From positions 3,439-67,438 of the forward strand of contig DASZER010000046.1 in NCBI GenBank assembly GCA_035940575.1: 64,000 nucleotides of DNA, read 5' to 3'. The notes beneath the pieces were generated by a model that had not been told where the DNA came from, searched no databases, and worked only from the letters and a program-made list of their open reading frames with translations. Of this stretch, positions 10,654 through 29,460 are shown in pieces. Each line of letters begins with the position of its first letter. The stretch's first letter is position 1. This DNA comes from Frankiaceae bacterium. GTDB taxonomy: Bacteria > Actinomycetota > Actinomycetes > BP-191. Made by a program: the position numbers and the translations under genes.

Positions 10654-10669
10654 GAAGTGCCGTGCTGCC

Positions 10670-12937: not shown

Positions 12938-13016
12938 GGGAATACCTTTGCTCCGTAGGCGTTACAGGTGCTAGAGTTTCGATCTGTAAGGCAGGAACGT
13001 CAAGGAGGGGAACAAG

Positions 13017-14264: not shown

Positions 14265-15142
14265 GCCGCGCGGTCCAGCAGCGCGAACGCGAACAGGCCG
14301 ATGCCGACGTAGCCGTTGACGGTGAAGAACGCGCGGTTGACGCGCGACAGGTCGCCGGGCTTCACGATCGCGTGCTCGTACGCCAGCGCCCCGGCCGTCA
14401 GCGCGACGCCCGCCCACCACGCCCACCCGAGGCCCGCGTCGAGCCCGAACGCCACCAGCAGCGCCAGCGTCACGACGTGCGTCGCGACGGAGACGCGCAG
14501 CGCGGTCGCGACGCCGAAGCGGGCTGGCAGCGAGTGGACGCCGTTCGCGCGGTCGCTGTCGACGTCCTGGCAGGCGTAGACGAGGTCGAAGCCGGCGATC
14601 CAGGTGCCGACCGCGAGCCCGAGCCACAGCGCGGGCCGCGCGCCGTCGAACGTCTTCGACATCGCCACCCACGCGCCGACGGGCGCGATCGCCTGCGCGA
14701 GGCCGAGGACGTAGTGGCAGAGCCAGGTGAACCGCTTGGCGTACGGGTACAGCGTGAGCGGCGCGAGGGCGACCGGCGCGAGCGCGAGGCAGAGCGGGTC
14801 GAGCGCGAGCGCGGCGAGCAGGAAGATGGCGAGCGCGACGGCCATGCCGCCGTACGCCACCGAGACCGGCAGCGCGCCGGTCACGAGCTCGCGGCTCGCG
14901 GTGCGGGGGTTGCGCGCGTCGATCTCGCGGTCGATCACGCGGTTGGCCGCCATCGCGAACGTGCGCGCGGCCACCATCGCGACGGTGACGAGGAGCACGT
15001 CGAGCCAGTCGACGTCGGCGACGGCGGTCAGCGCGGCGATGTAGGCGAACGGCAGCGCGAACACCGAGTGCTCGATGACGACGAGCCGCAGGAAGCCCTT
15101 CACGCGCCCCTGGTGGACGACCGGCTCGGCGACGGTGCTCAC
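14261..15142 (-). CDS. mqnP: UbiA-family aromatic prenyltransferase (MqnP-like)
   Basis: 293 aa polytopic protein. UbiA motifs are NRVIDREIDARNPRT and the second Asp-rich region YACQDVDSD. GTGA overlap with the UbiD gene. Confidence 0.75.
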   Translation of the reverse strand: MSTVAEPVVHQGRVKGFLRLVVIEHSVFALPFAYIAALTAVADVDWLDVLLVTVAMVAARTFAMAANRVIDREIDARNPRTASRELVTGALPVSVAYGGMAVALAIFLLAALALDPLCLALAPVALAPLTLYPYAKRFTWLCHYVLGLAQAIAPVGAWVAMSKTFDGARPALWLGLAVGTWIAGFDLVYACQDVDSDRANGVHSLPARFGVATALRVSVATHVVTLALLVAFGLDAGLGWAWWAGVALTAGALAYEHAIVKPGDLSRVNRAFFTVNGYVGIGLFAFALLDRAA

Positions 15143-16578
15143 AAGCCCAGCTCACCCCAGCGGCGCGTGACGCGCTCGACGACGGCCGGGTCCTGCTCGA
15201 TCTCCGGCGGCCAGCCGCCGGCGCGCGCGTAGCCCTCGGTGGGCAGCTTGCGGGTCGCGTCGATGCCGGCCTTGCCGCCCCAGAACTGCTGGTACGCCGC
15301 GTGGTCGAGGTGGTCGACGGGGCCCGTCGACAGCAGCAGGTCGTGGGCGTAGTCGACGTTGCCGAACGCCCGCCACGCGACCTCGGAGTAGTCGTGCACG
15401 TCGCAGTCGGCGTCGACCACGACGACGAGCTTCGTCAGGGAGAGCAGGCCCGCGCCCCAGATCGCGTTCATCACCTTCTGCGCCTGCTTCGGGTAGCGCT
15501 TCTCGACCGAGACGATCGCGCAGTTGTGGAACACGCCCTCGACCGGCAGGTCGTAGTCGACGATCTCGGGCACCGTCATCTGGATCAGCGGTAGGAAGAT
15601 GCGCTCGGTCGCCTTGCCGAGCCACTCGTCCTCCTGCGGGGGACGCCCGACGACGATCGTCTGGAACACCGGGTCGCGCCGCATCGTCATCACGTCGACC
15701 GTCAGCGCGGGGAACGGCTCGACCGGCGTGTAGAAGCCGGTGTGGTCGCCGAACGGCCCCTCCGGCAGCCGTACCCCCGGCTCGAGCCAGCCCTCGAGGA
15801 CGATCTGCGCGTCGGCGGGGACCTGCAACGGCACCGAGAGGCAGTCGACCAGCTCGATCCGCTCGCCCTTGAGGAACCCGGCGAACAGGTACTCGTCGAT
15901 GCCCGGCAACGGCGCGCTGGCCGAGTAGGTCACGACCGGCTCGCAGCCGAACGCGATCGCGACCGGCAGCCGCTCGCCGCGCCGCTCGGCGACGGCGTGG
16001 TGGGCGTTGGAGTCCTTGTGGATCTGCCAGTGCATGCCCACCGTGCGCTTGTCGTGGCGCTGGAGCCGGTACATGCCGAGGTTGCGCGTGCCCTCGGTGG
16101 GGTGGCGCGTGTGGGTGAGGCCGAGGTTCAGGAACGCGCCGCCGTCGAGCGGCCACGTGTGCAGCGCGGGGAGGTCGTAGAGGTCGATCTCGTCACCGCG
16201 ACGGACGACCTCCTGGCACGGCGCGGTCTTGACCTTCTTCGGCGGGACCGAACGCAGCGAGAGCAGCTTGCCGAGGGACTCCCTGATGCCGGAGAGGCCG
16301 ACCGGCAGCTCGGGCCGCACGAGGTCGCGGATGCGGTCGCCGATGTCGTCCAGCCGCGCGACGCCGAGCGCGGCGGCCATGCGGCGCTCGGTCCCGAAGA
16401 CGTTGATGGCCAGGGGCATCGAGGAGCCGGTGACGTTCTCGAACAGCAGCGCCGGGCCGCCCGCGCGGGTCACGCGCTGGACGATCTCGGTCACCTCGAG
16501 GTGCGGGTCGACCGGCGCCTTGACCCGCTTGAGGTCGCCGTCCTTCTCGAGACGGCGGAGGAACGCGTCGAGGCTCAC
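15139..16578 (-). CDS. ubiD: UbiD-family (prFMN-dependent) decarboxylase
   Basis: 479 aa starting from GTG 16578 (VSLDAFLRRLEKDGDLKRVKAPVDPHLEVTEIVQRV...). Full-length UbiD-like. The upstream part of ORF 15139..16974 is Arg-rich shadow. Confidence 0.85.
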   Translation of the reverse strand: MSLDAFLRRLEKDGDLKRVKAPVDPHLEVTEIVQRVTRAGGPALLFENVTGSSMPLAINVFGTERRMAAALGVARLDDIGDRIRDLVRPELPVGLSGIRESLGKLLSLRSVPPKKVKTAPCQEVVRRGDEIDLYDLPALHTWPLDGGAFLNLGLTHTRHPTEGTRNLGMYRLQRHDKRTVGMHWQIHKDSNAHHAVAERRGERLPVAIAFGCEPVVTYSASAPLPGIDEYLFAGFLKGERIELVDCLSVPLQVPADAQIVLEGWLEPGVRLPEGPFGDHTGFYTPVEPFPALTVDVMTMRRDPVFQTIVVGRPPQEDEWLGKATERIFLPLIQMTVPEIVDYDLPVEGVFHNCAIVSVEKRYPKQAQKVMNAIWGAGLLSLTKLVVVVDADCDVHDYSEVAWRAFGNVDYAHDLLLSTGPVDHLDHAAYQQFWGGKAGIDATRKLPTEGYARAGGWPPEIEQDPAVVERVTRRWGELGL

Positions 16579-17108: not shown

Positions 17109-17323
17109 TGCGCCTCGGCGCTCTCGGAGGCGCCGACCTGCTCGGTGGGGAACCGGTGCGGCGACGACTCGCGCGGCCCGTCGGAGAACGCCGCGAGGTA
17201 GTACGCCGCGATGCCCAGGATCAGCAGCGCGAGCGCGAGGTACCAGCGCGGCGCGGGGTTGTGGTCGACCTCGTCCCCGTCGCCGGTCGCGATCGGGTCG
17301 ATGAACAGCGGCCGCTCGGTCAC
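17105..17323 (-). CDS. 72-aa single-TM membrane protein
   Basis: MTERPLFIDPIATGDGDEVDHNPAPRWYLALALLILGIAAYYLAAFSDG... ATGA overlap with the CcoO-like gene. Confidence 0.55.
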   Translation of the reverse strand: MTERPLFIDPIATGDGDEVDHNPAPRWYLALALLILGIAAYYLAAFSDGPRESSPHRFPTEQVGASESAEAH

Positions 17324-17832
17324 TCGGACTCCTCGCAGGTGTGCTCGACGAGGAACGCCGCGAGCCGTTCGAGGTCACGGTGCACGAGGTGGCGGTACGA
17401 CGGCATCGTCGAGCCGGGATGCGCGGCGGCCGGGTCCTTGAGGTACTCGACCATCGCCGCGACCTTCTGCTCCTTGGTCGCGCCGTCCTCCGCGCCGGGC
17501 ACGCGGTCGCCGGCGCAGGCGAGGTCGGGGCCGTAGCGCGCCTGGCCCTGCAGGCCCGGCACGTCGTTGAGACCCTCGCCCGCGCTGCTCGGGCCCGCGG
17601 CGAGGTCGGCGTCGGTGAAGGCGTCGCGCACCTGGCGGGTGTGGCAGTAGACGCAGCCGTTGGAGCCGTAGAGGCCGCGGCCCTTCGCGCCCGCGACGCT
17701 GTGCTCGCGCGTCGCGTCGGTACGGGTCGTGGTGACGTCGGCCGTGGCGGGCGCGACGACCGTGGCGCCGTAGCCGAGGGCCACGAGCAGCGCGGGCCCG
17801 GCGAGCACGGGGAGCAGCGTCATGCGGCGCAT
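17320..17832 (-). CDS. CcoO/FixO-type monoheme cytochrome c (cbb3 oxidase subunit II-like)
   Basis: 170 aa with N-terminal TM MRRMTLLPVLAGPALLVALGYG. Heme site GRGLYGSNGCVYCHTRQVRD compares with canonical G.xxYxxEGCxxCHSQxxR. Distal region RYGPDLACAGDR...HPGSTMPSYRHL compares with GPDL...MPxY. Confidence 0.75.
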   Translation of the reverse strand: MRRMTLLPVLAGPALLVALGYGATVVAPATADVTTTRTDATREHSVAGAKGRGLYGSNGCVYCHTRQVRDAFTDADLAAGPSSAGEGLNDVPGLQGQARYGPDLACAGDRVPGAEDGATKEQKVAAMVEYLKDPAAAHPGSTMPSYRHLVHRDLERLAAFLVEHTCEESE

Positions 17833-17834
17833 CG

Positions 17835-19253
17835 TCACGACTCCTCGGGCGCCAGCGGGTCGCCGGCGGTCGACGTGGAGAACACCTGCTGGAACGCCGT
17901 CACGAGCGCGAACGTCACGAGCACCTCGCCCACGACGCGCAGCCAGAGCAGCGGGCGGATCGCGTCGGTGACGCGTACCCACGCGTCGCCGGTCGCGACC
18001 GAGGAGCCGTCGCGGACGCCCTGCGCGAGCAGCACGCCCTGGACGTAGCCCGCGACGAGCAGCGACAGCGCGACGAGCAGGACGCCGACGACGAGCGGCC
18101 AGGCGGCGTTGGCCGCGAGGCGCGGGTTGGTGATGCGGTTGCCCGACGCGGCCGGCAGCACGTGGAACACGCCCGCCAGGATGCCCGCGGCCGCGACGCC
18201 GAGCAGCGCGAGCTCGGACAGGCCGTCGGAGGCGACGCTGGCGTGCAGGAAGTCGCCCGCCGTACGCCCCGCCGTCGTCCCGGCGAGCAGCGCCCACGCG
18301 CCGAGCAGGCCGGCGGCGGCGAGGCCGAAGCGGAGGTCGGCGCCGTGCGCCAGCGCGGTGCGGCGCGCGTAGGTGCTCGCGACGAGCGTGACGTAGGCCA
18401 GGACGCCCGCGCCGAGCGCGATCGTCGCGGCGATGCCGACCGACTCGAGCCAGTCCTGCGCCGGCCCCCCGGCGAGGCGGGCCGCCCCCGCGAACGGCGC
18501 GAACACGAACCAGCCCCAGAACGCCGCCACGGCGAGCTGGCGGCTGTGCAGCGGCGCGCGCGACGACACCGGGATCGCGTAGAGCGCGAGGCCGAGCGCG
18601 AGCGGGACGAGCCAGAGCAGCTTGAGCCCGGACAGGCCGAACGCGAGCACCATCTCGTCGTTGACGCCGCGCACGCGCGGCAGCGCGCCGAACAGGATCA
18701 CGACGGGCGCGCAGAACAGCGCGCCGACCACGAACCACAGCGACGGGTGGACCTCGTCCTCGCGGCGCTTCGAGACCGTGCGCAGCACCGAGCAGAGCAG
18801 CAGGAGCTGGCCGAGCGCGATCAGCACGGCGAGCGGGCGCGGCATCTCGAAGCCCACGCGGCCGTTGCCGTGGCCGGTCAGCACCGCGAGCACCGAGCCG
18901 ACGACGCCGACCGTGACGATCGCGCCCGCGGCCTTGGAGAGGTTGTCGAGCTGGACGGGCGCCTTGGCGAGCCGGCGCGCGACGTCGAGGGCGGCGCCGT
19001 TGCCGAGCATGCCGAGGCCGCCGTAGGTGACCAGCAGGAACGCCGCCGGGCGCAGCCTGCCGACGTTCGTCGCCGCGCCGACCGTGAACACGTCGGCCGC
19101 GACCGTCTGCACCGAGACGAGCAGCAGCAGGAACGCGCCCAGGGCGAGGAACACCACGCCCGCGAGCAGCCAGGTCAGCGTCGACGCGGAGGGCTGCTCC
19201 CACGTGGGGGCGCTGGACTCCGACGCCGTCGACGGCGACGTCGTGACAGCCAC
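17835..19253 (-). CDS. cbb3-type oxidase subunit I (CcoN/FixN) homologue lacking the canonical His metal ligands
   Basis: 472-aa polytopic protein. It retains CcoN signature stretches (VGRLRP, EVHPSLWFVVGALF, QDWLESVGIA, AGYVQGVLL). Where CcoN has LHT, WWYGHNAVGF, WAGPHHLHY and GHVHSGALG, it has AAF, LAFGLSGLKL, FAGAARLAG and SDGLSELALLG. The comparison is from memory of Pseudomonas stutzeri CcoN. Confidence 0.6.
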   Translation of the reverse strand: MAVTTSPSTASESSAPTWEQPSASTLTWLLAGVVFLALGAFLLLLVSVQTVAADVFTVGAATNVGRLRPAAFLLVTYGGLGMLGNGAALDVARRLAKAPVQLDNLSKAAGAIVTVGVVGSVLAVLTGHGNGRVGFEMPRPLAVLIALGQLLLLCSVLRTVSKRREDEVHPSLWFVVGALFCAPVVILFGALPRVRGVNDEMVLAFGLSGLKLLWLVPLALGLALYAIPVSSRAPLHSRQLAVAAFWGWFVFAPFAGAARLAGGPAQDWLESVGIAATIALGAGVLAYVTLVASTYARRTALAHGADLRFGLAAAGLLGAWALLAGTTAGRTAGDFLHASVASDGLSELALLGVAAAGILAGVFHVLPAASGNRITNPRLAANAAWPLVVGVLLVALSLLVAGYVQGVLLAQGVRDGSSVATGDAWVRVTDAIRPLLWLRVVGEVLVTFALVTAFQQVFSTSTAGDPLAPEES

Positions 19254-20031: not shown

Positions 20032-20961
20032 CTAGACCCCGGCGTAGGAGTGCAGGCCCGACACCCAGATGTTGACGACGTAGTACGTCACCATCAGCGA
20101 GGCGAAGCCGGCGACGGCGATCCAGGCGGCGCGGCGGCCGCGCCAGCCGGCGGTCGAGCGCGCGTGCAGGTAGCCGGCGTAGACGACCCAGGTCACGAAC
20201 GACCAGGTCTCCTTCGGGTCCCAGCCCCAGTACCGCCCCCACGCGGCCTCGGCCCAGACGGCACCGGCCATGACGGTGAACGTCCACACAGGGAAGCCGA
20301 ACGCGTGCACGCGGTACGACACCCGGTCCAGCGTCGCCGCGGACGGCAGGCGCGAGGGCTTGTCGGGCGCGCGGCGGTCGCGCCAGGAGCGCCACAGGTA
20401 CAGCGCGGCGGCGACGAAGCCGACCATGAAGATGCCCGACGACGCCATGGCGCCGACGACGTGGATCTTGATCCAGTACGAGTTGAGCGCGGGGACGAGC
20501 GGGGCGGCGGGCGCGTAGAGGACGAGCGCCGCGACGCCGAGGTAGAGGATCACCGGCAGCATCACGAAGCCGCCGAGGTGGCGCAGCGGGTGGCGGCGGA
20601 TCACGCCGAGCCACGCGACGACGGCGAACAGCGACACCATCGACGAGAACTCGTACATGTTGCCCCACGGCACGCGGTCGACCGCGAGGCCGCGCGTGAC
20701 GGCGGATGCGACGTGCAGCAGCAGGCCCACGACGGTTGCGACGACGGCGACGCGGCCGGCGAGGCGCGGCACCCGCGAGGGCGCGGCGACCGCGGCGGCG
20801 ACGGGCGCCGGCACGGTGTCGACGGCGCCGCCCGCGATGGGGCGCGGCGCGAGGCGGCCGAACGACAGCTCCACGAAGTAGCCGAACATCGCGACGACGT
20901 ACGCGATCACCGCCGCGAACAGCAGCGTGTCGCTCGCCCGCGCGAGCCCCTCGTCGATCAC
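20032..20961 (-). CDS. ccsB: cytochrome c biogenesis protein CcsB/ResC (system II heme handling)
   Basis: 309 aa starting at GTG 20961 (GTGA overlap). Trp-rich WWD-type region is WAEAAWGRYWGWDPKETWSFVTW. Polytopic. Confidence 0.85.
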   Translation of the reverse strand: MIDEGLARASDTLLFAAVIAYVVAMFGYFVELSFGRLAPRPIAGGAVDTVPAPVAAAVAAPSRVPRLAGRVAVVATVVGLLLHVASAVTRGLAVDRVPWGNMYEFSSMVSLFAVVAWLGVIRRHPLRHLGGFVMLPVILYLGVAALVLYAPAAPLVPALNSYWIKIHVVGAMASSGIFMVGFVAAALYLWRSWRDRRAPDKPSRLPSAATLDRVSYRVHAFGFPVWTFTVMAGAVWAEAAWGRYWGWDPKETWSFVTWVVYAGYLHARSTAGWRGRRAAWIAVAGFASLMVTYYVVNIWVSGLHSYAGV

Positions 20962-22502
20962 GGCTTCTCCAGCGACGCTTGCAACGACTCGGCCACGCTC
21001 GCGAGCTCCGGCTCGTACCCCGCCGGGTCCTGGCGCGCGAGCCCGCCGACCTCCACGAGGGTACCCGCCTCGGTCGCGGTCGCCTTCACCCAGAGCCGCC
21101 GCCTGCGGATCCGCAGCGACAGGATCAGGCCGGTCAACGCCAGGATCGCCGCGACGAGCACGACCCGCTTGCCCGGGTCGGAGTTGACGTGCAGGACCGC
21201 GAAGTCCTTCACGCCGTCGAACTCCACGGTCAGCCCGCCGGGCAGCCGCTCGATCGTCTCGCCGAGGAACGCCACGCCCCCGCCCGCGCGCACCATCCCC
21301 TCCGTGTCGAGCTCGTAGACGTTCTGCGGCAGGCCGCTGTCGAGGCCGAGGCTGCCCGCCCACGTCTCGTAGACGAACGCCGGGATCAGCGCCTCGGGCG
21401 CGGCCGAGAACACCGTCTGCCCCCGCCGCGCGTACGTCGGCACGAACCGCCCGCGCAGCCCCACGTCGGGCAGCCCGCCGCCGAGGTCGGAGACCTTGAC
21501 GACGCCGTCGGAGACGAGGTTGGCCGCGCCCCTGTCGGGGAGGAACGGCTGCCACTGGTCGTAGACGACGGTGCCGTCGGGCAGGCGCGCGGTGAAGTGC
21601 AGCGCGTAGCCGTGGTCGAGCAGGTAGACCCGCGCGCCGCGCACGGTCAGCGGCTCGTTGACCCGGACGGTCCGCTTCCGGTCTGGCGCGCCCACCGAGG
21701 GGCGCCAGCGCACGTCGACCTCGTACGACGACGGCGCGCCGTTGGGCAGGAACCGCGCCCTGAAGTCGTCCACCGTCACCTCGAACGGCGGCAGGTCGTC
21801 GCCGGTGTTGAGGCGGCCGGGGTGCAGCTCGTCGTACGCCGCCGGCGTGTTGACGAACGTGTCGCCCTCCACGACGAGCACGTCGCCGCGGTACCCCCAC
21901 GCGGCGCCCATCGCGACGCCGGCGAGCAGGCCGAGCAGCGCGAGGTGGAACGCGATGTTGCCGGTCTCGCGCACGTAGCCGCGCTCGGCGGACAGGCCGG
22001 TGTCGTACGGCCGCACGCGCCAGCGCCGCAGCGACCGCCGGGCCGCGTCGTAGACCTCGGTAGGCGACGCCGACGTCGTGAACGACCGCGAGACGGGGAG
22101 GCGCGAGAGGTTGCGCGGCGGCGCCGGCGGGACCGAGCGCAGCGCGCGCACGTGCAGCCGGATGCGCGGGGTGAGGCAGCCGACGAGCGACACCATCAGC
22201 GCGAGGTAGATCGCGCCGAACCACGGCGAGGCGTAGACGTCGAACGCGTACAGCCGGTCCAGCCACGGCGCGAGCGACGGGTGGTCGCCGTAGTAGCCGG
22301 CGACGCCCGACGGGTTGAGCGAGCGCTGCGGCAGCAGCGAGCCCGGCACCGCCGCGACGGCGAGCAGGAACAGCAGCAGCAACGCCGTCCGCATCGACGT
22401 CCACGTACGCCACGCCCTGCGCATCGCCGCGCCGGGCCCGACGCGGGGCGGCGCGGGCGCGCGGTCCTCTGGCGAGGTGGAGAGCTCGGTCGTCGCGGTC
22501 AC
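20958..22502 (-). CDS. resB: cytochrome c biogenesis protein ResB/Ccs1
   Basis: 514 aa starting at GTG 22502 (GTGA overlap). N-terminus is WRTWTSMRTALLLLFLLAVAAVPGSLLPQR, followed by a large extracytoplasmic domain and a C-terminal TM. Confidence 0.85.
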   Translation of the reverse strand: MTATTELSTSPEDRAPAPPRVGPGAAMRRAWRTWTSMRTALLLLFLLAVAAVPGSLLPQRSLNPSGVAGYYGDHPSLAPWLDRLYAFDVYASPWFGAIYLALMVSLVGCLTPRIRLHVRALRSVPPAPPRNLSRLPVSRSFTTSASPTEVYDAARRSLRRWRVRPYDTGLSAERGYVRETGNIAFHLALLGLLAGVAMGAAWGYRGDVLVVEGDTFVNTPAAYDELHPGRLNTGDDLPPFEVTVDDFRARFLPNGAPSSYEVDVRWRPSVGAPDRKRTVRVNEPLTVRGARVYLLDHGYALHFTARLPDGTVVYDQWQPFLPDRGAANLVSDGVVKVSDLGGGLPDVGLRGRFVPTYARRGQTVFSAAPEALIPAFVYETWAGSLGLDSGLPQNVYELDTEGMVRAGGGVAFLGETIERLPGGLTVEFDGVKDFAVLHVNSDPGKRVVLVAAILALTGLILSLRIRRRRLWVKATATEAGTLVEVGGLARQDPAGYEPELASVAESLQASLEKP

Positions 22503-23260
22503 AGCGCGGTCTCGAACCCGCCGATCCAGACCTGCATCCGCGCCACGATCCGCGTCCACTCGCCGGTGACGAGCAGCACGCCGATCAGCACGAGGAACCC
22601 GCCGCCGATCCGCGTGACGAGCGCGTAGTGGCGCTTCACGACCGCGAACGCCGCCATGGAGCGCTCGAACGCGAGCCCCGCCAGCACGAACGGCAGGCCG
22701 AGGCCGAGGCAGTAGAACAGCGAGAGCAGCGCGCCGCGGCCCGCCGTGCCGGTGGAGTAGGCGAGGGAGTTGACGGCGGTCAGCGTCGGCCCCGCGCACG
22801 GCGTCCAGCCGACGCCGAACAGCACGCCCAGCAGCGGCGCCCCCGCGAGCCCGGTCTTCGGCAGCGCATGGATGCGGAACTCCCGCGAGAACAGCGACAC
22901 CCGCGACAGCGCGCCCATGAACGCCAGGCCGAGCACGATGGTCACGACGCCGAGCACCCGCGTGATCGCGTCGGCGTGGTCGGCGAACACCCGCCCCGCC
23001 GCGCCGAACGCCGCGCCCGCCGAGACGAACACCACCGAGAAGCCGAGCACGAACAGCAGCCCGCCCACGACCACCCGCGAGCGCTGCCGCGCGGTGACGT
23101 CGGCCTCCGCGAGGTCGGCGCCGGTGAGGCCGGTGACGAAGGACAGGTAGCCCGGCACGAGCGGCAGCACGCACGGCGAGAGGAAGGACACGAGCCCGGC
23201 CAAGACCGCGATCGGGATGGCGGCCAGCAGCGACCCGGAGAGGACGGTGTCCTGGATCAC
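22499..23260 (-). CDS. ccdA: cytochrome c biogenesis thiol-reductant transporter CcdA (DsbD family)
   Basis: 253 aa starting at GTG 23260. Conserved Cys motifs are FLSPCVLPLVPGY and GWTPCAGPTL. Confidence 0.85.
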   Translation of the reverse strand: MIQDTVLSGSLLAAIPIAVLAGLVSFLSPCVLPLVPGYLSFVTGLTGADLAEADVTARQRSRVVVGGLLFVLGFSVVFVSAGAAFGAAGRVFADHADAITRVLGVVTIVLGLAFMGALSRVSLFSREFRIHALPKTGLAGAPLLGVLFGVGWTPCAGPTLTAVNSLAYSTGTAGRGALLSLFYCLGLGLPFVLAGLAFERSMAAFAVVKRHYALVTRIGGGFLVLIGVLLVTGEWTRIVARMQVWIGGFETAL

Positions 23261-23823
23261 GGCGCCCGCTCCGCGAGCACCCGGTCGACGAGCGTCCGCA
23301 GCGGCGCCTCGTCGAGCACGCCGAACGCGTACGCCGCGACGCGGCCCGACCTGTCGACGACGTAGGTGGCGGGCGGCGACTTCGGCACGGTCTCGAACAG
23401 CGTGAGCAGCCGCCCCGGCTCGTCGTGGAAGGAGGGGTACGTCACGCCGTAGCGCTCGACGTGCCGCCTCGCGGCGACGGCGTCGTCGCGGATGTCGATG
23501 CCGACGAACGCCACGCCCCGCGAACGCGTGTCGCGCCAGACGCGTTCCAGGTGCGGCTGCTCGGCGCGGCACGGGACGCACCAGGCGCCCCACACGTTCA
23601 CCACCGCGACGCCGCCGCCGCGCAGCTCCGCGAGCGAGAGCGGCCTGCCGTCCAGGCCCTCGCCCGCCAGCGCCGGGGCGGGCTCGCGAGAGCCCGTGGA
23701 GACGTACGTCACCACGGCGTCGCCGGCGACGTAGCGCTCCGCGCCGTCGGGCGCGCCGCCGCGCGTGCAGCCCGCCGCCGCCACCAGGGCGAGCGCGAGC
23801 GCCACGGCGCGGAGGCGGGGCAC
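23257..23823 (-). CDS. resA: TlpA/ResA-type thiol-disulfide oxidoreductase lipoprotein
   Basis: About 188 aa. Lipobox LVAAAGC and thioredoxin motif VNVWGAWCVPCRAE. The GTG 23823 start is approximate. Confidence 0.75.
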   Translation of the reverse strand: MPRLRAVALALALVAAAGCTRGGAPDGAERYVAGDAVVTYVSTGSREPAPALAGEGLDGRPLSLAELRGGGVAVVNVWGAWCVPCRAEQPHLERVWRDTRSRGVAFVGIDIRDDAVAARRHVERYGVTYPSFHDEPGRLLTLFETVPKSPPATYVVDRSGRVAAYAFGVLDEAPLRTLVDRVLAERAP

Positions 23824-23997: not shown

Positions 23998-24312
23998 ATG
24001 GCCAACCCGCTCCAGCGGTCCCAGTGGCTCCGCGTGGCCTTCGGGTCGCTGCTCTGCACGATGCTGTTCATGGTGTTCTTCGCGGCCGTCCCCTCGGCGA
24101 TCATCAACTGGTCCGACGGCTGGTCCTGGGTCCAGGCGCCCGAGACGTTCGGCGTCCTCGGCCTCGGCAAGCGGCTCCGCGACCTGATCATCGTCGGCTG
24201 GTACGGCGCCATCACCCCCGTCACGTTCGTCGCGTTCTCGCTCTGGCAGAAGCTGCACCCGGTCAACGCCGATGCGGACGAGCCGAAGCGCGACGCGGGC
24301 GGCTACCGCTAG
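23998..24312 (+). CDS. 104-aa membrane protein, first gene of the b6-type operon
   Basis: ATG 23998 is preceded by GAGGAAGG. Product MANPLQRSQWLRVAFGSLLCTMLFMVFFAAVPSAII...IIVGWYGAITPVTFVAFSLW has 2-3 hydrophobic segments. Confidence 0.6.
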   Translation: MANPLQRSQWLRVAFGSLLCTMLFMVFFAAVPSAIINWSDGWSWVQAPETFGVLGLGKRLRDLIIVGWYGAITPVTFVAFSLWQKLHPVNADADEPKRDAGGYR

Positions 24313-24328
24313 ACGGAGGCGCGCCCAC

Positions 24329-24682
24329 ATGACCGACAACCGCGTCGAGATCTACGACGACTACGTCCTCGGCACCGTCGACCCCAACTGGCTCCAGGAG
24401 CGGGTCAAGCCGAAGCGTCACATCGCGCTCTCCCCCGAGCTGTGCATCCTCTGTCGGGCGTGCGAGGACGTGTGCCCGTGGGAGTGCATCTACATGATGT
24501 CGCCCGACATCGTCGCGGGCGCGGAGAGCAGCGACCTCAAGACGCTCTCGGAGACGGCGGGCGCCGTCTTCATCATCGACGACAACGAGTGCACCCGGTG
24601 CGGCATCTGCGTCGACCGCTGCCCGCCCGGCGCGCTGTTCTACTCGAAGATCGGCGAAGCCGCCGCGAAGAAGAAGCACTAG
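24329..24682 (+). CDS. 2x[4Fe-4S] ferredoxin-type protein
   Basis: 117 aa with two motifs, CILCRACEDVCP and CTRCGICVDRCP. 16 nt after the previous gene and 12 nt before cytochrome b6. Confidence 0.8.
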   Translation: MTDNRVEIYDDYVLGTVDPNWLQERVKPKRHIALSPELCILCRACEDVCPWECIYMMSPDIVAGAESSDLKTLSETAGAVFIIDDNECTRCGICVDRCPPGALFYSKIGEAAAKKKH

Positions 24683-24694
24683 GAGGTCGGGCCG

Positions 24695-25492
24695 GTGGCC
24701 GAGAAGGACGGTCGTCTCAACGAGGCGAAGGACGCCCTCGTCGAGATGGTGAAGCCGAAGGACCCGCGCGAGGGCGCGGTCTGGAAGTCCATCTTCCGCC
24801 CCGGCTCGATCTACCGCCCCGGGTACAGGGACACGTCGCGCGACCGCGCGCTCGCGACGATGAACAACGTCCTGTACCACCTGCACCCGGTGAAGCTGAA
24901 GCGCCACGGCCTCAAGCTCACCTACACGTACTGCCTCGGCGGCCTGTCGTTCTTCCTGTTCATCGTGCTGACGGTGACGGGCATCTACCTGATGTTCTTC
25001 TACCGGCCCTCGGCCGGCTTCGGGCAGGAGCTCGCGTACCGCGACATCCAGAACCTGTCGTCGGGCATCGCGTTCGGCCAGCTCGTCCGCAACATGCACC
25101 GATGGTCGGCGCACGGCATGGTCTTCACGGTCTTCCTGCACATGGCGCGCGTCTTCTACCACGGCGCGTACAAGGCACCGCGCGAGTTCAACTGGGTCGT
25201 CGGCGTCATCCTGCTGCTGCTGACCCTGCTGCTGTCGTTCACGGGCTACCTGCTCCCGTGGGACCAGCTCGCGATCTGGGCCGTCGCCGTCGGCACGCAG
25301 ATGATGGGCTACACGCCGGTCTTCGGTGCCGAGGTGCGCTTCGTGCTCCTGGGCGGCGTCGAGATCGGGCCGCCCACCCTCCTCCGCTGGTACGTCCTCC
25401 ACGTCCTCGCGCTGCCATTCGTGGCGGTCATCTTCATGGCCGTCCACTTCTGGCGGATCCGCAAGGACGGCGGAATCTCCGGACCTCTGTAA
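24695..25492 (+). CDS. cytochrome b6-type subunit (N-terminal four-helix half of cytochrome b)
   Basis: 265 aa. His pairs lie in VRNMHRWSAHGMVFTVFLHMARVF and LRWYVLHVLALPFVAVIFMAVHFWRIRKDGGISGPL. The YCLGG Cys is present. The C-terminus is almost identical to plastid/cyanobacterial b6 (...IRKQGISGPL). Confidence 0.85.
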   Translation: MAEKDGRLNEAKDALVEMVKPKDPREGAVWKSIFRPGSIYRPGYRDTSRDRALATMNNVLYHLHPVKLKRHGLKLTYTYCLGGLSFFLFIVLTVTGIYLMFFYRPSAGFGQELAYRDIQNLSSGIAFGQLVRNMHRWSAHGMVFTVFLHMARVFYHGAYKAPREFNWVVGVILLLLTLLLSFTGYLLPWDQLAIWAVAVGTQMMGYTPVFGAEVRFVLLGGVEIGPPTLLRWYVLHVLALPFVAVIFMAVHFWRIRKDGGISGPL

Positions 25493-25501
25493 GGGGCGTC
25501 G

Positions 25502-26398
25502 ATGGCTGAAGAGATCACCCCGGACCCCGAGGTCTACGCCGCCGCGATCGCGGCCGGCGACTCGGAGCGGATGGCGCGCGCCAAGGCCAAGTCAGCCGCG
25601 GTGAAGAAGGCGCGCAAGGCGGCGGGCATCCCGTCGCCGGCCGAGCAGGCCGCGGCGGCCGCCGCCGCACCTGCCGCCGCCGCCGCGCCCGCCGCGAGCG
25701 ACGCGCCTCCCCCGGCCACCGCCGCTGCCGTCGCCGCCCCCGCCGCCACGGCGGGTGCCCCGGCCGCGGCTCCCGCGGCCGCCGCGGGTGGCGGTGGCAC
25801 GGCGACCCTGACGCGTTCGACGCCGCTGTCCCCCGCCGAGCGCGCGGCGCGCGTGGCCGCCGCGACGCAGGGCAAGGCCGGAGGCGGGCGCGGGCTGTCG
25901 GGCGAGATGACCCACCGCCTGCTGGCGATGGTCCCGCCGGAGGGCATCCAGCGCGTCGAGCGCACGCAGGACGACAAGGTCAACGTCTGGCCGCACCTGC
26001 TCCTCGAGGAGTTCGTCGCGGTCCTCGCGTGCACGGCGTTCCTCGTGCTGTTCTCGACGTTCGTCAACGCGCCGCTGCTGGACCTGGCGAACGTCAACCT
26101 GACGCCGAACCCCTCCAAGGCGCCGTGGTACTTCCTGGGCCTCCAGGAGCTGCTGCGCTACTACCACCCGATGATCGCCGGCGTGCTCATCCCCGGCATC
26201 GGCCTGGGCATCCTGATGGCGTTCCCCTACATCGACAAGAACCCGTCGATGCGGCCCGCCAACCGCAAGTTCGCGATCATGCTGTTCACGTTCTTCATGA
26301 TGTTCTCGGCGATCCTGTCGACGATCGGTTCCCTCTTCCGCGGGCCTGGCTACAACTTCATCTTCCCGTGGCAAAAGGGCCTCTACTTCGAGTTCTAG
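25502..26398 (+). CDS. subunit IV-like protein (C-terminal half of cytochrome b) with a ~150-aa Ala/Pro-rich N-terminal extension
   Basis: 298 aa. The C-terminal 3-TM domain contains NPSKAPWYFLGLQELLRY (PEWY-box equivalent). The N-terminus is low-complexity AAAAAPAAAAAP... Confidence 0.8.
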   Translation: MAEEITPDPEVYAAAIAAGDSERMARAKAKSAAVKKARKAAGIPSPAEQAAAAAAAPAAAAAPAASDAPPPATAAAVAAPAATAGAPAAAPAAAAGGGGTATLTRSTPLSPAERAARVAAATQGKAGGGRGLSGEMTHRLLAMVPPEGIQRVERTQDDKVNVWPHLLLEEFVAVLACTAFLVLFSTFVNAPLLDLANVNLTPNPSKAPWYFLGLQELLRYYHPMIAGVLIPGIGLGILMAFPYIDKNPSMRPANRKFAIMLFTFFMMFSAILSTIGSLFRGPGYNFIFPWQKGLYFEF

Positions 26399-26412
26399 CG
26401 AGAGGCAGGACG

Positions 26413-26973
26413 GTGGCGAAGAAGAAGGGCATGTCCCGGCGGGACTTCTTCCGCACGGGGATGCTCGGCAGCGCGGCGGTGTTCGGTGGCGGCTTCACCG
26501 CCGCCACCCTCGGCATGCTCTGGCCCAGCCTCAAGGGCGGCTTCGGCGCCAAGATCAACCTGGGCCGCGCGGACGACCTCAAGGCCGAGCTCGCCGCGAT
26601 CCCGCACAACTGGAAGTACTACGCCGAGGCGCGGTCGTACATCATCCTGTACACCCCCGCGGCCGGGCAGGAGGCGTTCTACAAGGGCGTCGCCGAGGGC
26701 GGGTTCCTCGCGACGTACCAGAAGTGCGCGCACCTCGGCTGCAAGGTCCCGCAGTGCGAGTCGAGCGGCTGGCTCGAGTGCCCGTGCCACGGCTCCCGCT
26801 ACAACAAGGCCGGCGAGTACGAGTTCGGCCCCGCGCCGCGCGGGCTCGACCACTTCCCGATCATCCTCGACGGCGACAACATCATCGTCGACACCGCCAC
26901 GCGCAAGGAAGGCCCGCCGCGCGGCACCAACACGATCAACCAGAACCCCGCCGGCGCGCACTGCCAGGGCTAG
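26413..26973 (+). CDS. Rieske [2Fe-2S] protein with Tat signal
   Basis: Cluster boxes are CAHLGC and CPCHGS. Twin-arginine motif is SRRDFFRTG. The start is GTG 26413 or ATG 26431. Confidence 0.85.
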   Translation: MAKKKGMSRRDFFRTGMLGSAAVFGGGFTAATLGMLWPSLKGGFGAKINLGRADDLKAELAAIPHNWKYYAEARSYIILYTPAAGQEAFYKGVAEGGFLATYQKCAHLGCKVPQCESSGWLECPCHGSRYNKAGEYEFGPAPRGLDHFPIILDGDNIIVDTATRKEGPPRGTNTINQNPAGAHCQG

Positions 26974-27012
26974 CCAGCCCTACCTGATCCGAGAAGGAGA
27001 CCCCTCCGAGCG

Positions 27013-27699
27013 ATGAGCGACATCTCCCCGCGCGAGCGGCGTTCCGACGCCGTAGCCCGGCGCAAGAAGCTCTCGGTCCCGATCGGGTTCCGTCCGGCGC
27101 CGTCCGACGACGAGCTGGAGACCAACGTCCTGGAGCGGTGGCAGGGCTGGGGCCTGCTCCTGCTGCTGTTCCTGGCGCTGTTCCTGCCGCTGTACTTCAT
27201 CTTCTTCGAGAACCAGCGCTCCAACGACGCCGCGCTCGAGCAGCGCGCGGAGTCGATCAGGCGGGGCGCCGCGATCTTCGCGCAGGGCAAGCCCGGCGCC
27301 CACGGCTTCCAGGCCGGGTGCGCGCGCTGCCACGGGACGTACGCCGGCGGCGGCGTCGTGCCGCAGTGGAAGGCCAACCCGACCGCCCAGCCCGCCGACG
27401 TCCCCGCGCCGTCGCTGACCGAGGTGTTCAAGCGCCAGATCGTCGACCTCAAGAAGACGCCGCGCGACGCCTACCGCTTCGTCTACGAGACGATCGCGCA
27501 GGGCCGCCCCGGCACGCCGATGCCCACGTGGGGCCTCGGCTACGGCGGCCCGATGAACGACCAGCAGATCGAGGACGTCATCAACTACCTGCTGTCGGTC
27601 CAGACCGGCCTGCCGGAGGAGGTCGCCAGCGAGATCGCGCTCGGCGACGGCTCCGGCGGCGCGTTCTCCCACCTCATCACCTTCGCCGCCTCGCGGTAG
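27013..27699 (+). CDS. membrane-anchored monoheme cytochrome c
   Basis: 228 aa with one TM (WGLLLLLFLALFLPLYFIFF), a single CARCH heme site and GRPGTPMPTWG as the Met-ligand region. Confidence 0.8.
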   Translation: MSDISPRERRSDAVARRKKLSVPIGFRPAPSDDELETNVLERWQGWGLLLLLFLALFLPLYFIFFENQRSNDAALEQRAESIRRGAAIFAQGKPGAHGFQAGCARCHGTYAGGGVVPQWKANPTAQPADVPAPSLTEVFKRQIVDLKKTPRDAYRFVYETIAQGRPGTPMPTWGLGYGGPMNDQQIEDVINYLLSVQTGLPEEVASEIALGDGSGGAFSHLITFAASR

Positions 27700-27711
27700 G
27701 AAAGGTTCGAC

Positions 27712-28545
27712 GTGCCGAACGTGTACGCCCTCGCCGCCCACCCGCTGGTCCAGCAGGTGGCGCAGGAGGAGGTCAAGACCAAGGGGCCCCGCGCCGTCTT
27801 CGGCGTGATCCTCATGTTCCTCATCCTCTGCGGCGGCGTCTGGATGCTGCTCCAGTCGTCGTTCGGGCCGTGGCAGGCGTACCTGATCTCGAGCGTCGCG
27901 TTCTGGGGCTCGTGGCTGGTGCTGTCCACGATCTGGCTCGTCGGCGTCCCCGGCGTCGGCGGGTGGATCCCGCGCTCGACGCCGCGCTTCAACGGCCCGC
28001 AGGGCGCCGAGGCGTCGTGGGTCGTGGTCAACCCGCACGGCGAGGACGAGAAGCTGAAGAAGGCGTTCGACGAGTTCGCGAACGGCGGCGACGCGGCGTT
28101 CTTCACGGTCGACGAGTCGCTCCAGGACCCGACCACGCAGTCGCAGAAGTCGTCGGCCGAGTCGGCCGCGAACGAGCGCATCTCCGAGGAGTACGCCCGC
28201 GACCTCGGCGTCGGCGCGGCCGACGTGACGTCGCCGAACGTCATCACGGTCACCGAGACGCAGCTCGGCAAGGAGGACGGCAAGTTCAAGTACGCGCGGA
28301 TCACGTTCGGCCCCGCGAAGCCGAACGCCACCGACAACGAGCCGACGAAGGCGCTCATCGCGCGGATCAAGCCGAAGACCATGGAGCTCGCGCTGCACGA
28401 GGGCTCGCTGGCGAGGCCGACGTACGTCGCGATGCCGCTGTTCGGCGTGCTGTTCCTCCTCCACGCGCTGCTGCTGGCCAGGTACGAGACCAAGCACGTG
28501 GACACCCCGCAGGGCGCGCCGGAACGGGTGACCGCGGGCGTCTGA
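27712..28545 (+). CDS. membrane protein of unknown function, last gene of the b6-type operon
   Basis: 277 aa with two N-terminal TMs, an acidic soluble domain of about 150 aa and a C-terminal TM (YVAMPLFGVLFLLHALLLA). 12 nt after the cytochrome c gene. Confidence 0.6.
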   Translation: MPNVYALAAHPLVQQVAQEEVKTKGPRAVFGVILMFLILCGGVWMLLQSSFGPWQAYLISSVAFWGSWLVLSTIWLVGVPGVGGWIPRSTPRFNGPQGAEASWVVVNPHGEDEKLKKAFDEFANGGDAAFFTVDESLQDPTTQSQKSSAESAANERISEEYARDLGVGAADVTSPNVITVTETQLGKEDGKFKYARITFGPAKPNATDNEPTKALIARIKPKTMELALHEGSLARPTYVAMPLFGVLFLLHALLLARYETKHVDTPQGAPERVTAGV

Positions 28546-28557
28546 CGCCGTACGTGC

Positions 28558-28592
28558 CGAAGGGGCGCCCCGTTCGCGGGAGCGCCCCTTCG
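28558..28592. terminator. bidirectional stem-loop between convergent genes
   Basis: 11-bp perfect stem cgaaggggcgc / gcgccccttcg with a 13-nt loop, between stops at 28545 (+) and 28603 (-). Confidence 0.55.
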
Positions 28593-28602: not shown

Positions 28603-28773
28603 CTAGTCGAAGCAGATCCTGAAGTGGTGGATCTCGCCGGTCGTGTCGCCGTACGAGCCCTCCACGCCGATGCCCTCGTCGCAGGGGTGGGCCTCGGCGG
28701 CGTAGGCGGGGGCGGCCACGGCCAGCGAGGCGGCGGCGAGGGCGGCGGCGGCGAGCAGCCGGGTGGCGGGCAT
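28603..28773 (-). CDS. 56-aa secreted peptide precursor (2 Cys)
   Basis: ATG 28773 is preceded by GAAGGAGC. Product MPATRLLAAAALAAASLAVAAPAYA|AEAHPCDEGIGVEGSYGDTTGEIHHFRICFD. Confidence 0.6.
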   Translation of the reverse strand: MPATRLLAAAALAAASLAVAAPAYAAEAHPCDEGIGVEGSYGDTTGEIHHFRICFD

Positions 28774-28884
28774 GGGTGCTCCTTCGTGTGGTGAGGGTGC
28801 CGCCACGGCGGCGGCGAGGACGGTGAGGGTGCCCCCTCGCCGCGCGCGCCGCCATGTCCGATCGGGACGATCCCGGACGCGCGC

Positions 28885-28911
28885 AGGCCCCGGCCGCGAG
28901 GGCCGGGGCCT
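28885..28911 (-). terminator. stem-loop after peptide gene B
   Basis: aggccccggcc gcgag ggccggggcct, an 11-bp stem, 58 nt past the stop at 28969. Confidence 0.5.
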
Positions 28912-28968
28912 GGCGTCGTAGCGGTTGGCGGGCGGAGGCGGATCAGGCCGCCCGCGACGAGGTCGCGA

Positions 28969-29130
28969 CTACGGCAGCGGGATGCACTGCGTGACCGTGA
29001 CGGGCATGCCGTTGATGATGGTCGTGTGGGTGATGCAGATCATGCCGGCGTCGGGCTGCGCGACGGCGGCGGGCGCCGCGGCGAACAGCGACGCCGTCAC
29101 AGCGGTGGCGGCGAGCATCTTGCGCATCAT
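28969..29130 (-). CDS. 53-aa secreted peptide precursor (2 Cys)
   Basis: ATG 29130 is preceded by GGGGAG. Product MMRKMLAATAVTASLFAAAPAAVA|QPDAGMICITHTTIINGMPVTVTQCIPLP. Confidence 0.6.
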   Translation of the reverse strand: MMRKMLAATAVTASLFAAAPAAVAQPDAGMICITHTTIINGMPVTVTQCIPLP

Positions 29131-29217
29131 GGAACTCCCCGTTCTGTTGGCGCCGCTCCTGCGCGGCGCGACCGGGGCAGGCTCGTTGCGCACGGCCCAC
29201 GCGTCAAGGCGTAGGCC

Positions 29218-29427
29218 TCACCCCTGGATTCGGTCGACCGTGACGCAGACGGTCGGCCCGTCGCCTACGCACAGCAGCGGCGGGCCCTCGGGGCGCGCGG
29301 GGCAGACCGCGATCACGGGCCCGGGAACGATCACGTCGACGCAGGGGGCGGCGCTCGCGGGGGCGGCGAGCGACACGACGGAGGCCGCGGCGAGGGAGGC
29401 GGCGGCGAGGATGCGGGGGAGGGTCAT
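29218..29427 (-). CDS. 69-aa secreted peptide precursor (4 Cys, Pro/Val-rich)
   Basis: MTLPRILAAASLAAASVVSLAAPASA|APCVDVIVPGPVIAVCPARPEGPPLLCVGDGPTVCVTVDRIQG. An alternative TTG start lies at 29448. No clear SD. Confidence 0.5.
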   Translation of the reverse strand: MTLPRILAAASLAAASVVSLAAPASAAPCVDVIVPGPVIAVCPARPEGPPLLCVGDGPTVCVTVDRIQG

Positions 29428-29460
29428 GGCGCGCAACGCTCGCGGCAACGCCGCGCCACG

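Follow-up and report, generated by a model that had tools for sequence, protein, structure and literature searches.

A group of seven consecutive genes, designated here g1 to g7, was analyzed in a stretch of 64,000 nucleotides from contig DASZER010000046.1 of a Frankiaceae bacterium (this whole stretch is referred to below as the window). The genes occupy positions 23998 to 28545 of the forward strand and code for a cytochrome b6-like protein, a subunit IV, a Rieske protein and a membrane-anchored cytochrome c, together with a ferredoxin and two membrane proteins. An earlier note on this DNA, made from its letters and open reading frames (ORFs), had described seven tightly spaced genes at these positions, and all the ORFs were found where it placed them. 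Domains were identified by comparing the scores of Pfam and NCBIfam models with the cut-offs of each family. The features of the operon are the following:

23998-24312, forward strand: g1, membrane protein of 104 amino acids (aa) with two transmembrane (TM) segments, putative small subunit (from the ORF, its hydrophobicity and synteny)
24329-24682, forward strand: g2, 2x[4Fe-4S] ferredoxin of 117 aa without signal peptide, putative subunit of the cytoplasmic side (Fer4 matches)
24695-25492, forward strand: g3, four-helix cytochrome b6-like subunit of 265 aa, GTG start (PF00033)
25502-26398, forward strand: g4, subunit IV of 298 aa with three TM helices and the APWY motif of the Qo site (PF00032)
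26413-26973, forward strand: g5, Rieske [2Fe-2S] protein with a twin-arginine translocation (Tat) signal, 186 aa from 26413 or 180 aa from the ATG at 26431 (PF00355)
27013-27699, forward strand: g6, TM-anchored class-I monoheme cytochrome c of 228 aa (PF00034)
27712-28545, forward strand: g7, membrane protein of 277 aa, GTG start, putative subunit (from the ORF and synteny)
28558-28592, forward strand: hairpin rich in GC, with UUCGUCGUU after it, likely terminator of the operon (from folding energy compared with shuffled sequences)

Spacers between consecutive genes, from g1 to g7, were 16, 12, 9, 14 (or 32, depending on the start of g5), 39, and 12 nt. The terminal hairpin begins 13 nt 3' of the g7 stop codon and displayed a minimum free energy of -36.9 kcal/mol (z = -4.63), a stability reached by none of 200 shuffled sequences. 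The spacers of 9-39 nt, together with this hairpin, indicated that g1 to g7 form a single transcript. GGAGG-like sites were found 5' of the starts of g1, g2, and g3 (GAGGAAGG ahead of g1), and purine-rich sites resembling AAGGGG, GAGAGG, and AAGGAG preceded the starts of g4, g5, and g6, respectively. The GC content at third codon positions was between 0.91 and 0.99 across all seven genes (0.99 in g1), the Ala/Pro-rich first 150 codons of g4 included. A gap of 174 nt separates g1 from a divergently transcribed resA-like gene located upstream; a scan for sigma-70 promoters gave no match, which is the outcome expected for actinobacterial sequence of 73% GC.

The separation of cytochrome b into g3 and g4, which the earlier note treated as genuine, was the same in all the 75 relatives with sequence at this place, where a TAA stop codon and a separate gene of the g4 type were present. 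Because relatives likewise show the TAA after ISGPL and encode subunit IV in a gene of its own, an origin of the split by frameshift or from a fused gene could be ruled out. At window positions 25490-25504 both genes lie in one reading frame, with only the TAA and 9 nt between them; in a relative with 95% identity (L002) the two frames are different, so that the shared frame is a coincidence and not a sign of programmed read-through.

The protein encoded by g3 matched PF00033 (Cytochrome_B) at 1.5e-41, and its best match among solved structures was the b6 subunit of the b6f complex (1.8e-44; 43% identity to Chlamydomonas b6). Cys80 lies within YCLGG (residues 79-83), a CxGG motif that in b6 contains the cysteine bound to heme ci by a thioether; for g3, actual attachment of heme ci is predicted from this motif. 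CxGG was present in 85 out of 85 sequences of the family, as FCLGG in 51, LCLGG in 25, and YCLGG in 8. The pairs His135/His149 and His236/His251 aligned with the b6 heme ligands His86/100/187/202 and were at least 93% conserved in the 85 sequences. The protein ends with ...RIRKDGGISGPL, and its C-terminus FWRIRKDGGISGPL aligned with MIRKQ-GISGPL of the plastid protein. Alignment with plastid b6 thus bore out the hallmarks that had been proposed for this subunit, namely the cysteine of YCLGG, both histidine pairs and a b6-like C-terminus.

Subunit IV (g4) matched PF00032 (Cytochrom_B_C) over residues 196-287, presented three TM segments and the motif SKAPWYF, and contained no CxxCH; the APWYF box noted earlier was therefore present, and APWY was found in 75 of 76 family members. 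In g5, a Rieske domain (PF00355) was accompanied by a twin-arginine RRDFF signal/anchor motif and by the boxes CAHLGC and CPCHGSRY. Its best solved relatives were the anammox Rieske proteins 9rk4 and 9rk3 of Kuenenia, the former with the same Ser/Tyr pair, which is conserved across the clade (CPCHGS[KRQ]Y). The cytochrome encoded by g6 displayed a PF00034 (Cytochrom_C) domain with one CxxCH (CARCH), a TM segment at residues 47-65 and a basic N-terminus; it is a class-I cytochrome c, in which no cytochrome f domain was detected. Both the Tat-exported Rieske protein and the monoheme cytochrome c anchored by a single TM helix were consequently as first described.

A scan of one genome per species of the GTDB retrieved at least 599 matching stretches, at least 585 of them encoding a relative of the cytochrome b. 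From these 585 or more we kept 80 loci for survey, with cytochromes b 66-90% identical to g3. Their hosts were Nitriliruptoria, Acidimicrobiia (among them Aquihabitans sp. G128, with a complete genome) and numerous metagenome-assembled genomes (MAGs) of unclassified Actinomycetota/Actinomycetes. All seven genes appeared in the same order in 56 of the 59 loci having at least 1 kb upstream and 3.8 kb downstream, so that the seven-gene order was found well beyond this contig. The ferredoxin gene was located directly 5' of cytochrome b in 79 out of 79 loci with upstream sequence, and the order ferredoxin, b6, subunit IV, Rieske, and cytochrome c was met by tblastn in essentially every locus with sequence there. 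Iterative profile searches detected a homolog of g1 just 5' of the ferredoxin in 81 loci (78/79 of those with at least 1 kb upstream) and a homolog of g7 just 3' of the cytochrome c gene in 66. Independent gene calls matched the seven-gene layout in Salsipaludibacter albus and four other contigs; in a further contig (L004) the order agreed by homology, though the gene calls were poorer. The operon is thus conserved in many Actinomycetota species and is no rarity. Among orthologs of g6, 39 loci had the monoheme type; the diheme type, found in 27, belonged to Nitriliruptoria and Acidimicrobiia.

Three features had been singled out at first as foreign to the canonical complexes. Two of them, the ferredoxin and the pair of membrane proteins, turned out to be family-wide, whereas the Ala/Pro-rich N-terminal extension of subunit IV is lineage-specific. 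This extension (around 135-150 aa) was unconserved and variable in length; conservation started around residue 138, with RLL...PHLL, and the extension occupies the position of the linker between b and subunit IV in a fused relative.

The relatedness of the complex was considered from pairwise identities, from the ranking of NCBIfam models and from the best PDB matches of the Rieske protein, which are anammox proteins. On these grounds it can probably be assigned to the APWY clade of Rieske/cytochrome b complexes (Kao & Hunte 2014, PMC4122944), which equals subfamily G (Dibrova et al. 2017, PMC5600118) and groups A1/A2 (Baymann et al. 2012, PMC3509893), and neither to the b6f nor to the Firmicute clade. 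The initial view that b is split as in b6f and Firmicute complexes held for the split and its hallmarks, but not for the sequence affinity, which lies with the APWY clade instead. Identity of g3 was 54% with a long cytochrome b linked to a GltD-like protein (metagenomic locus L089), over the N-terminal half of the latter, vs. 43% with plastid b6, and residues 138-292 of g4 were 46% identical to the C-terminal half of the same fused cytochrome b, the match to PetD being barely detectable (22 bits). The fused cytochrome b, the closest one compared from outside the family, also bears APWY and shares the N- and C-terminal motifs. Placement by hidden Markov models, a check suggested in the earlier note, ranked for g3 the model of ExtP first (NF040969, 295.6 bits, cut-off 290), then b6 (PRK03735, 197 bits, cut-off 325), and then actinobacterial QcrB (bc1_QcrB_actin, 108.5 bits, cut-off 500). 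The remaining bc1_Qcr*_actin models gave 15.8 bits for QcrC (cut-off 200) and 33.3 bits for QcrA (cut-off 275). Model scores, motifs and gene content together supported the first impression that the operon codes neither for qcrCAB nor for a canonical b6f or Firmicute complex.

Some of these traits are already known in the clade. Split cytochromes b with APWY or PEWY were noted in Rubrobacter, Conexibacter, Patulibacter, and Ilumatobacter, and CxGG with APWY in deep-branching Actinobacteria (PMC4122944); cytoplasmic iron-sulfur (FeS)/NAD(P) oxidoreductase partners are known as well, in subfamily G and in anammox complexes. With the APWY clade the operon shares a split four-helix cytochrome b with CxGG, an APWY subunit IV, and the existence of cytoplasmic FeS/oxidoreductase partners. 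It differs in that the FeS partner is a stand-alone ferredoxin of 117 aa that lacks an FAD/NAD(P) module, a class-I cytochrome c with one or two hemes serves as acceptor in place of a multiheme cytochrome, the heme ci motif reads Y/F/L-CLGG vs. the WCMGG typical of the clade, and two further conserved membrane proteins (g1 and g7) are present. The anammox complexes Kuste4569-4574 and Kustd1480-1485 of Kuenenia likewise combine a b6-like cytochrome b with a subunit IV-like protein, and their high-potential Rieske proteins are the closest solved relatives of g5. They also carry an FeS chain attached to the cytochrome b dimer on its n side. The subunits of this type have a C-terminal ferredoxin domain to which g2 is similar, a homology measured to metagenomic proteins of the same architecture and not to the Kuenenia sequences. 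In contrast, the FeS subunit of the anammox complexes is a GltD/NfnB-like NAD(P) oxidoreductase of large size, exceeding about 500 aa; their subunit IV contains five helices, and their cytochromes c carry six or eight hemes.

The cyanobacterial/plastid b6f complex presents a four-helix b6 with the same four histidines, the heme ci (cn) cysteine in YCLGG and an almost identical C-terminus, as well as a three-helix subunit IV and a Rieske protein. In the operon, however, a class-I cytochrome c replaces cytochrome f, genes for PetG/L/M/N are not included, APWY takes the place of PEWY, and a 45-residue N-terminal extension of b6 and a dedicated ferredoxin gene are added. Firmicute QcrABC (b6c) is similar in being respiratory and menaquinol-oxidizing, with a split cytochrome b and covalent heme ci, but in Bacillus subunit IV is fused to cytochrome c and bears PDWY, whereas here g4 and g6 are separate and the motif is APWY; we know of no equivalents of the ferredoxin, g1, or g7 in the Firmicute complex. 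Actinobacterial QcrCAB (bcc) comes from the same phylum and shares the presumed role, that is, oxidation of menaquinol to feed a heme-copper oxidase; it has, in contrast, a long unsplit QcrB, a diheme QcrC, and a polytopic QcrA.

Geobacter ExtOPQ (extHIJKLMNOPQS; PMC5877670) resembles the operon insofar as ExtP was the best-scoring curated model for g3 and ExtQ the sole one for g4. Membership in the Geobacter Ext system was rejected: ExtQ scored 49.9 bits vs. a cut-off of 150, and the porin ExtI, the rhodanese ExtH, and the multiheme ExtKL/M/N/S were not among the neighbors. The score of g3 with ExtP follows from shared APWY-clade ancestry. Many b6 homologs from Egibacteraceae, Nitriliruptor, and Salsipaludibacter bear the NCBI name "selenite/tellurite reduction operon b-type cytochrome ExtP". 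Considering the marginal score and the unrelated context, this label is an annotation over-reach and is misleading for the actinobacterial proteins.

The ferredoxin g2 matched Fer4 and Fer4_7 in Pfam, with two Fer4 motifs only. In its family all eight cysteines of the clusters were conserved, along with the N-terminal DDYxLxxVDPxWLQERVKPKRHI and CPWxCIxM. Searching its profile against 1.84 billion cluster representatives gave 10 matches below 1e-30 and 159 below 1e-10; the family is thus compact, given the mere 10 representatives under the former threshold. An identity with NuoI/TYKY was discarded, with TIGR01971 at 41.3 bits vs. a cut-off of 113 and no adjacent nuo genes, and NuoI, FwdF, or PsaC-like identities were likewise rejected since the similarity was of the generic Fer4 kind and below the family cut-offs.

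Outside the family itself and repeat-rich polyferredoxins, the best multidomain matches in a single stretch were the C-terminal Fer4 domains of proteins of 551-615 aa with the architecture Fer4_20+Pyr_redox_2+Fer4. In BLASTP comparisons g2 was 41% identical over 81 aa to one of them (P0441; E 1e-17) and 35% identical over 112 aa to another (P0452; E 8e-16), and both matched g2 in the spacing between the two cysteine motifs. The genes of these two proteins are each directly followed by a Rieske gene (2/2 readable contigs). By homology, then, g2 can be regarded as the ferredoxin domain through which NAD(P) oxidoreductase subunits are attached to anammox-type complexes, here in stand-alone form, and the shared docking domain would tie the actinobacterial complexes to those bearing an NAD(P) reductase. 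FAD/NAD(P)-binding Pyr_redox_2 and Fer4_20 domains were found neither in g2 nor in any gene of the related operons. In locus L089, the GltD-like and Rieske genes are followed by those for the long cytochrome b with APWY and for a large cytochrome of the c type. Within this metagenomic cluster (2959-4548; 624-2444), the CxGG cysteine of the fused long APWY cytochrome b is replaced (WGLGG) and the partner is a GltD-like FeS flavoprotein.

Ahead of the region shared with plastid b6, whose alignment begins at residue 77 of g3, this protein bears an N-terminal extension of about 45 residues (W.SIFRPGS..R.GY.D..R.R....MN.VLYHLHP.K.KRH) that was at least 93% conserved over the 85 sequences. It is missing in plastid b6 and present in the GltD-linked cytochrome b; the ExtP model, whose match begins at residue 56, does not cover W.SIFRPGS, the upstream part of the extension. 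The segment ahead of helix A is basic (16 K/R vs. 9 D/E) and g2 is acidic (19 D/E vs. 13 K/R). Since the extension is conserved, basic as opposed to the acidic ferredoxin, common to the GltD-linked cytochrome b and absent from plastid b6, we infer that it may serve as a docking platform for the FeS module. The cytochrome b of L089 keeps both the FeS partner and the W.SIFR...HLHP segment without the ci cysteine, which argues that the FeS module does not track heme ci. AlphaFold3 models place the anammox NAD(P) oxidoreductase subunits on the cytoplasmic (n) side, with the FeS chain running to the cytochrome b dimer, and an additional heme b, with an N-terminal histidine from each cytochrome b as ligand (His43/His62), was proposed for these complexes (PMC12954380, 2025). 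In g3, His62, His64, and His71 are mere candidates for the equivalent of this ligand.

The relationship of g2 with NAD(P) oxidoreductases raises the question of electron bifurcation, which has been proposed for anammox Rieske/cytochrome b complexes (PMC12954380). The operon would then code for an enzyme in which a Rieske center at about +300 mV drives the second electron via the b/ci hemes into the ferredoxin and on to a low-potential acceptor, either a soluble ferredoxin or NAD(P)+ through a partner. The center of g5 is predicted to be of high potential, on account of the conserved Ser/Tyr pair and of the values of +303 and +335 mV measured for the nearest solved homologs, the anammox Rieske proteins (PMC12954380). 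Following the scheme of that work, we estimate that menaquinone (about -74 mV) and such a Rieske center (about +300 mV) would leave about -450 mV for the second electron, enough driving force to reach ferredoxin-like potentials. Such a function is also favored by the homology of g2 to a docking domain of NAD(P) oxidoreductase subunits, by the Ser/Tyr signature of g5, nearest to anammox Rieske proteins measured above +300 mV, and by the menaquinone biosynthesis genes of the window described below. Yet an NAD(P)- or FAD-binding module occurred in none of more than 80 operons, the hosts resemble ordinary aerobes with heme-copper oxidases, whose expected need is a proton-motive Q cycle, the CxGG site of heme ci points to a working quinone-reduction (Qi) site, and bifurcation is unproven even in anammox bacteria. 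We consider bifurcation unlikely here.

The remaining two proteins, g1 and g7, are membrane proteins. The hydrophobic segments of g1 span residues 18-36 and 63-81, its conserved residues are W10, P32, D62, Q84, and the C-terminal GGYR, and it matched no model of Pfam or NCBIfam. The build of g7 comprises a TM hairpin, an alpha/beta domain of about 160 aa, and a C-terminal TM helix; the charge bias leaves the membrane side of the domain ambiguous. Neither Pfam nor NCBIfam gave a significant family for g7, the only hit being Phage_holin_3_6, which was below threshold (17.5 bits vs. a cut-off of 28.4). Its AlphaFold2 (AF2) model reached a mean predicted local distance difference test (pLDDT) value of 79.5, and Foldseek of this model against the PDB gave no match at E <= 0.001, the top TM-scores (<= 0.34) being noise. 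In close relatives, with 41-90% identity, the hairpin LMF..LCGGVW.LLQSSFGP was strongly conserved and His251 of the last helix was invariant; across the wider family the hairpin was much less conserved. As membership in the operon is kept across classes, g1 and g7 were taken as parts of the complex, and most likely they are lineage-specific structural membrane subunits.

Another explanation is that g1, g2, and/or g7 are dedicated biogenesis factors co-transcribed with the structural genes. According to it, they would act, for example, in the attachment of heme ci, as an analogue of the plastid CCB factors, or as a redox helper for the insertion of cofactors. The CxGG cysteine, which needs a maturation step, occurs in every member of the clade, the operon lies inside a neighborhood of heme biosynthesis and cytochrome c maturation, and g1 and g7 lack a recognizable family (for g7, the fold search included). 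To our knowledge, CCB-type factors for heme ci attachment have not been reported outside oxygenic phototrophs, which we also counted on this side. On the other hand, no model of the CCB family or of other maturation factors in Pfam or NCBIfam was detected for g1 or g7, the closest relatives of g2 are structural electron-transfer domains of subunits linked to Rieske/cytochrome b, and L089's cytochrome b, which has WGLGG and thus no ci cysteine, retains the FeS partner and the N-terminal segment. The strong conservation of the g7 hairpin among close relatives is, moreover, what would be expected of a packed subunit. A biogenesis role for these proteins appears to us distinctly improbable.

The surroundings of the operon were examined in the window and in related contigs. 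The window is metagenomic, g7 being 100% identical to a protein on contig Ga0334906_000067 of JGI metagenome 3300037503, and its actinobacterial assignment is based on gene order and on the labels of related MAGs. The operon has on one side resA-ccdA-resB-ccsA, which serve cytochrome c maturation of the System II type, and on the other hemL-hemB-hemD-hemC-hemA. The former (ccsA, resB, ccdA, and resA) occupy positions 20032-23823, upstream of the operon; downstream are three small secreted-peptide ORFs, a His-phosphatase, hemL, hemB, cobA-hemD, hemC, hemA, and a Rex-like regulator. Genes of the futalosine pathway of menaquinone synthesis were found at 9411-16578 on the reverse strand, coding for MqnE (TIGR03700, 516 bits), MqnP of the SCO4491 type, a decarboxylase of the SCO4490 type, and a UbiX-like flavoprotein. 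We take the mqn-ccs-hem layout to be collinear with that of Streptomyces and Mycobacterium, the seven-gene operon being presumably inserted between the His-phosphatase/hemL side and resA. Beside the cytochrome c maturation genes, at 17320-19253 on the reverse strand, a CcoN-like protein of 472 aa and a CcoO-like protein of 172 aa with a FixO domain are encoded. Their scores were far under the cut-offs (78 bits vs. 1080 for PRK14485 and 60.5 vs. 583 for ccoN in the CcoN-like protein; 59 vs. 218 in the CcoO-like one), and the pair looks like a very divergent heme-copper oxidase or an enzyme similar to nitric oxide reductase. Neither qcrCAB nor ctaCDE was present among the approximately 50 ORFs scanned in the window. 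Among relatives the operon was usually located between hemL and the ccs genes, and the hem/ccs neighborhood was found in Salsipaludibacter and in other MAGs, a fixed position that suggests an old, largely vertical inheritance within the phylum. In L004 it adjoins COX1-COX3 and COX2-cytochrome c oxidase genes.

This context also bears on whether the complex could be accessory, that is, a condition-specific or reverse-running enzyme coexisting with canonical qcrCAB. Organisms that possess several complexes are overrepresented in the APWY clade, for which reverse operation has been proposed (PMC4122944), the nearest MAGs are labeled "Actinomycetota bacterium" or "Mycobacteriales bacterium", the latter an order whose cultured members use qcrCAB, and the divergent CcoN/CcoO-like pair is a second oxidase nearby. 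Against such a role, the cytochrome b was very strongly conserved across classes (66-95% identity), the operon holds a fixed position in the hem/ccs core locus of several lineages and adjoins a caa3-type oxidase in L004, qcrCAB was missing from the ORFs scanned in the window, and Kao & Hunte (PMC4122944) found solely split forms in the listed strains of Rubrobacteridae and Acidimicrobidae. An accessory role is thus a minor possibility in our estimation.

From the gene content, motifs, conservation, synteny, and homologies observed, we consider it likely that g1 to g7 code for the seven subunits of a menaquinol:cytochrome c oxidoreductase of the Rieske/cytochrome b6 type, which probably acts as housekeeping complex III in this lineage and whose ferredoxin wires the n-side hemes to a cytoplasmic partner. 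We infer in this reading the association of the seven products in one complex, the membrane side and docking site of the ferredoxin, and the direction of electron flow through it. Menaquinol would be oxidized in a Q cycle at the Qo site formed by cytochrome b6, subunit IV with its APWY motif, and the Tat-exported Rieske protein. In the high-potential branch, the Rieske protein would hand electrons to the membrane-anchored cytochrome c, which would in turn supply a terminal heme-copper oxidase; in the low-potential branch, electrons would pass from heme bp to heme bn and to the covalently bound heme ci at the cytoplasmic Qi site. The ferredoxin may be a permanently associated peripheral subunit of the cytoplasmic face, probably docked on the basic N-terminal extension of b6, and could relay electrons, through its two clusters, between the n-side hemes and a redox partner in the cytoplasm.

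Several points weigh against this reading. As of 2014, a complex with the APWY motif had been characterized neither in vitro nor in vivo, and Kao & Hunte proposed that such complexes run in reverse (PMC4122944). The housekeeping role is deduced from context, and g1, g2, and g7 are tied to the core solely by conserved operon membership, so that they could be assembly factors, for instance for heme ci attachment. The similarity of g2 to Fer4 domains is in part generic, as polyferredoxins also scored well in its profile search, and the AF2 model of g2 was too poor for docking analysis (mean pLDDT 51.7). The likelihoods that we attach to this reading and to the alternatives overlap, since bifurcation or an accessory role does not exclude the core of it, and they are not meant to sum to one.

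Textbooks hold that Actinobacteria use the QcrCAB bcc complex. Many Actinomycetota, including Acidimicrobiia, Nitriliruptoria, and unclassified soil and saline lineages, encode instead of it or besides it a b6-like complex with a heme ci site, three subunits of which are without prior characterization. What heme ci does, and whether electrons enter or leave the n side of b6-type complexes through ferredoxin, is an old question in photosynthesis research, for which the cultivable aerobes Aquihabitans and Salsipaludibacter, as carriers of the operon, may provide a simple system. A farther-reaching proposal is that a large part of the aerobic Actinomycetota respires via a b6-type complex with a hard-wired cytoplasmic ferredoxin, the low-potential branch (hemes b and ci and, possibly, a further heme at the interface, bound by the conserved HLHP histidines) exchanging electrons with the ferredoxin/NAD(P) pool. 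We regard this as doubtful; if true, the complex would either generate low-potential reductant in respiration at the expense of quinol or act as a ferredoxin:quinone reductase, and it would be a natural stable version of the long-debated link between ferredoxin and heme ci in photosynthetic b6f. Our literature search found no description of the seven-gene complex or of a ferredoxin-containing actinobacterial b6 complex. Relative to the literature searched, the apparently new elements are the seven-gene complex across many Actinomycetota species, the stand-alone ferredoxin homologous to an oxidoreductase docking domain, the two conserved membrane proteins without detectable family or fold, and the conserved N-terminal extension of b6.

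Other features of the window were recorded in passing. Directly 3' of the operon, at 28603-29448 on the reverse strand, are the three tandem small ORFs mentioned above (around 53-76 aa), with a signal-peptide-like N-terminus and a short mature part that contains cysteine; six such small secreted-peptide-like genes were found at the equivalent place of a related contig (L087; 10891-12253, reverse strand). A riboswitch of the cyclic di-GMP-I class (RF01051) was detected at 49128-49205 on the forward strand with 52 bits (gathering score 35), about 80 nt 5' of a gene for a secreted CAP-domain protein of the cysteine-rich secretory protein family (49284-50006); a second CAP-domain gene is located at 51113-51874. 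Finally, an ORF of 1597 aa at 39871-44664 on the reverse strand presented a strong coding signal (GC at third codon positions 0.98) and no match in Pfam or NCBIfam, and L087 carries a gene of 1601 aa at the equivalent position, after the Rex and glutaredoxin genes.

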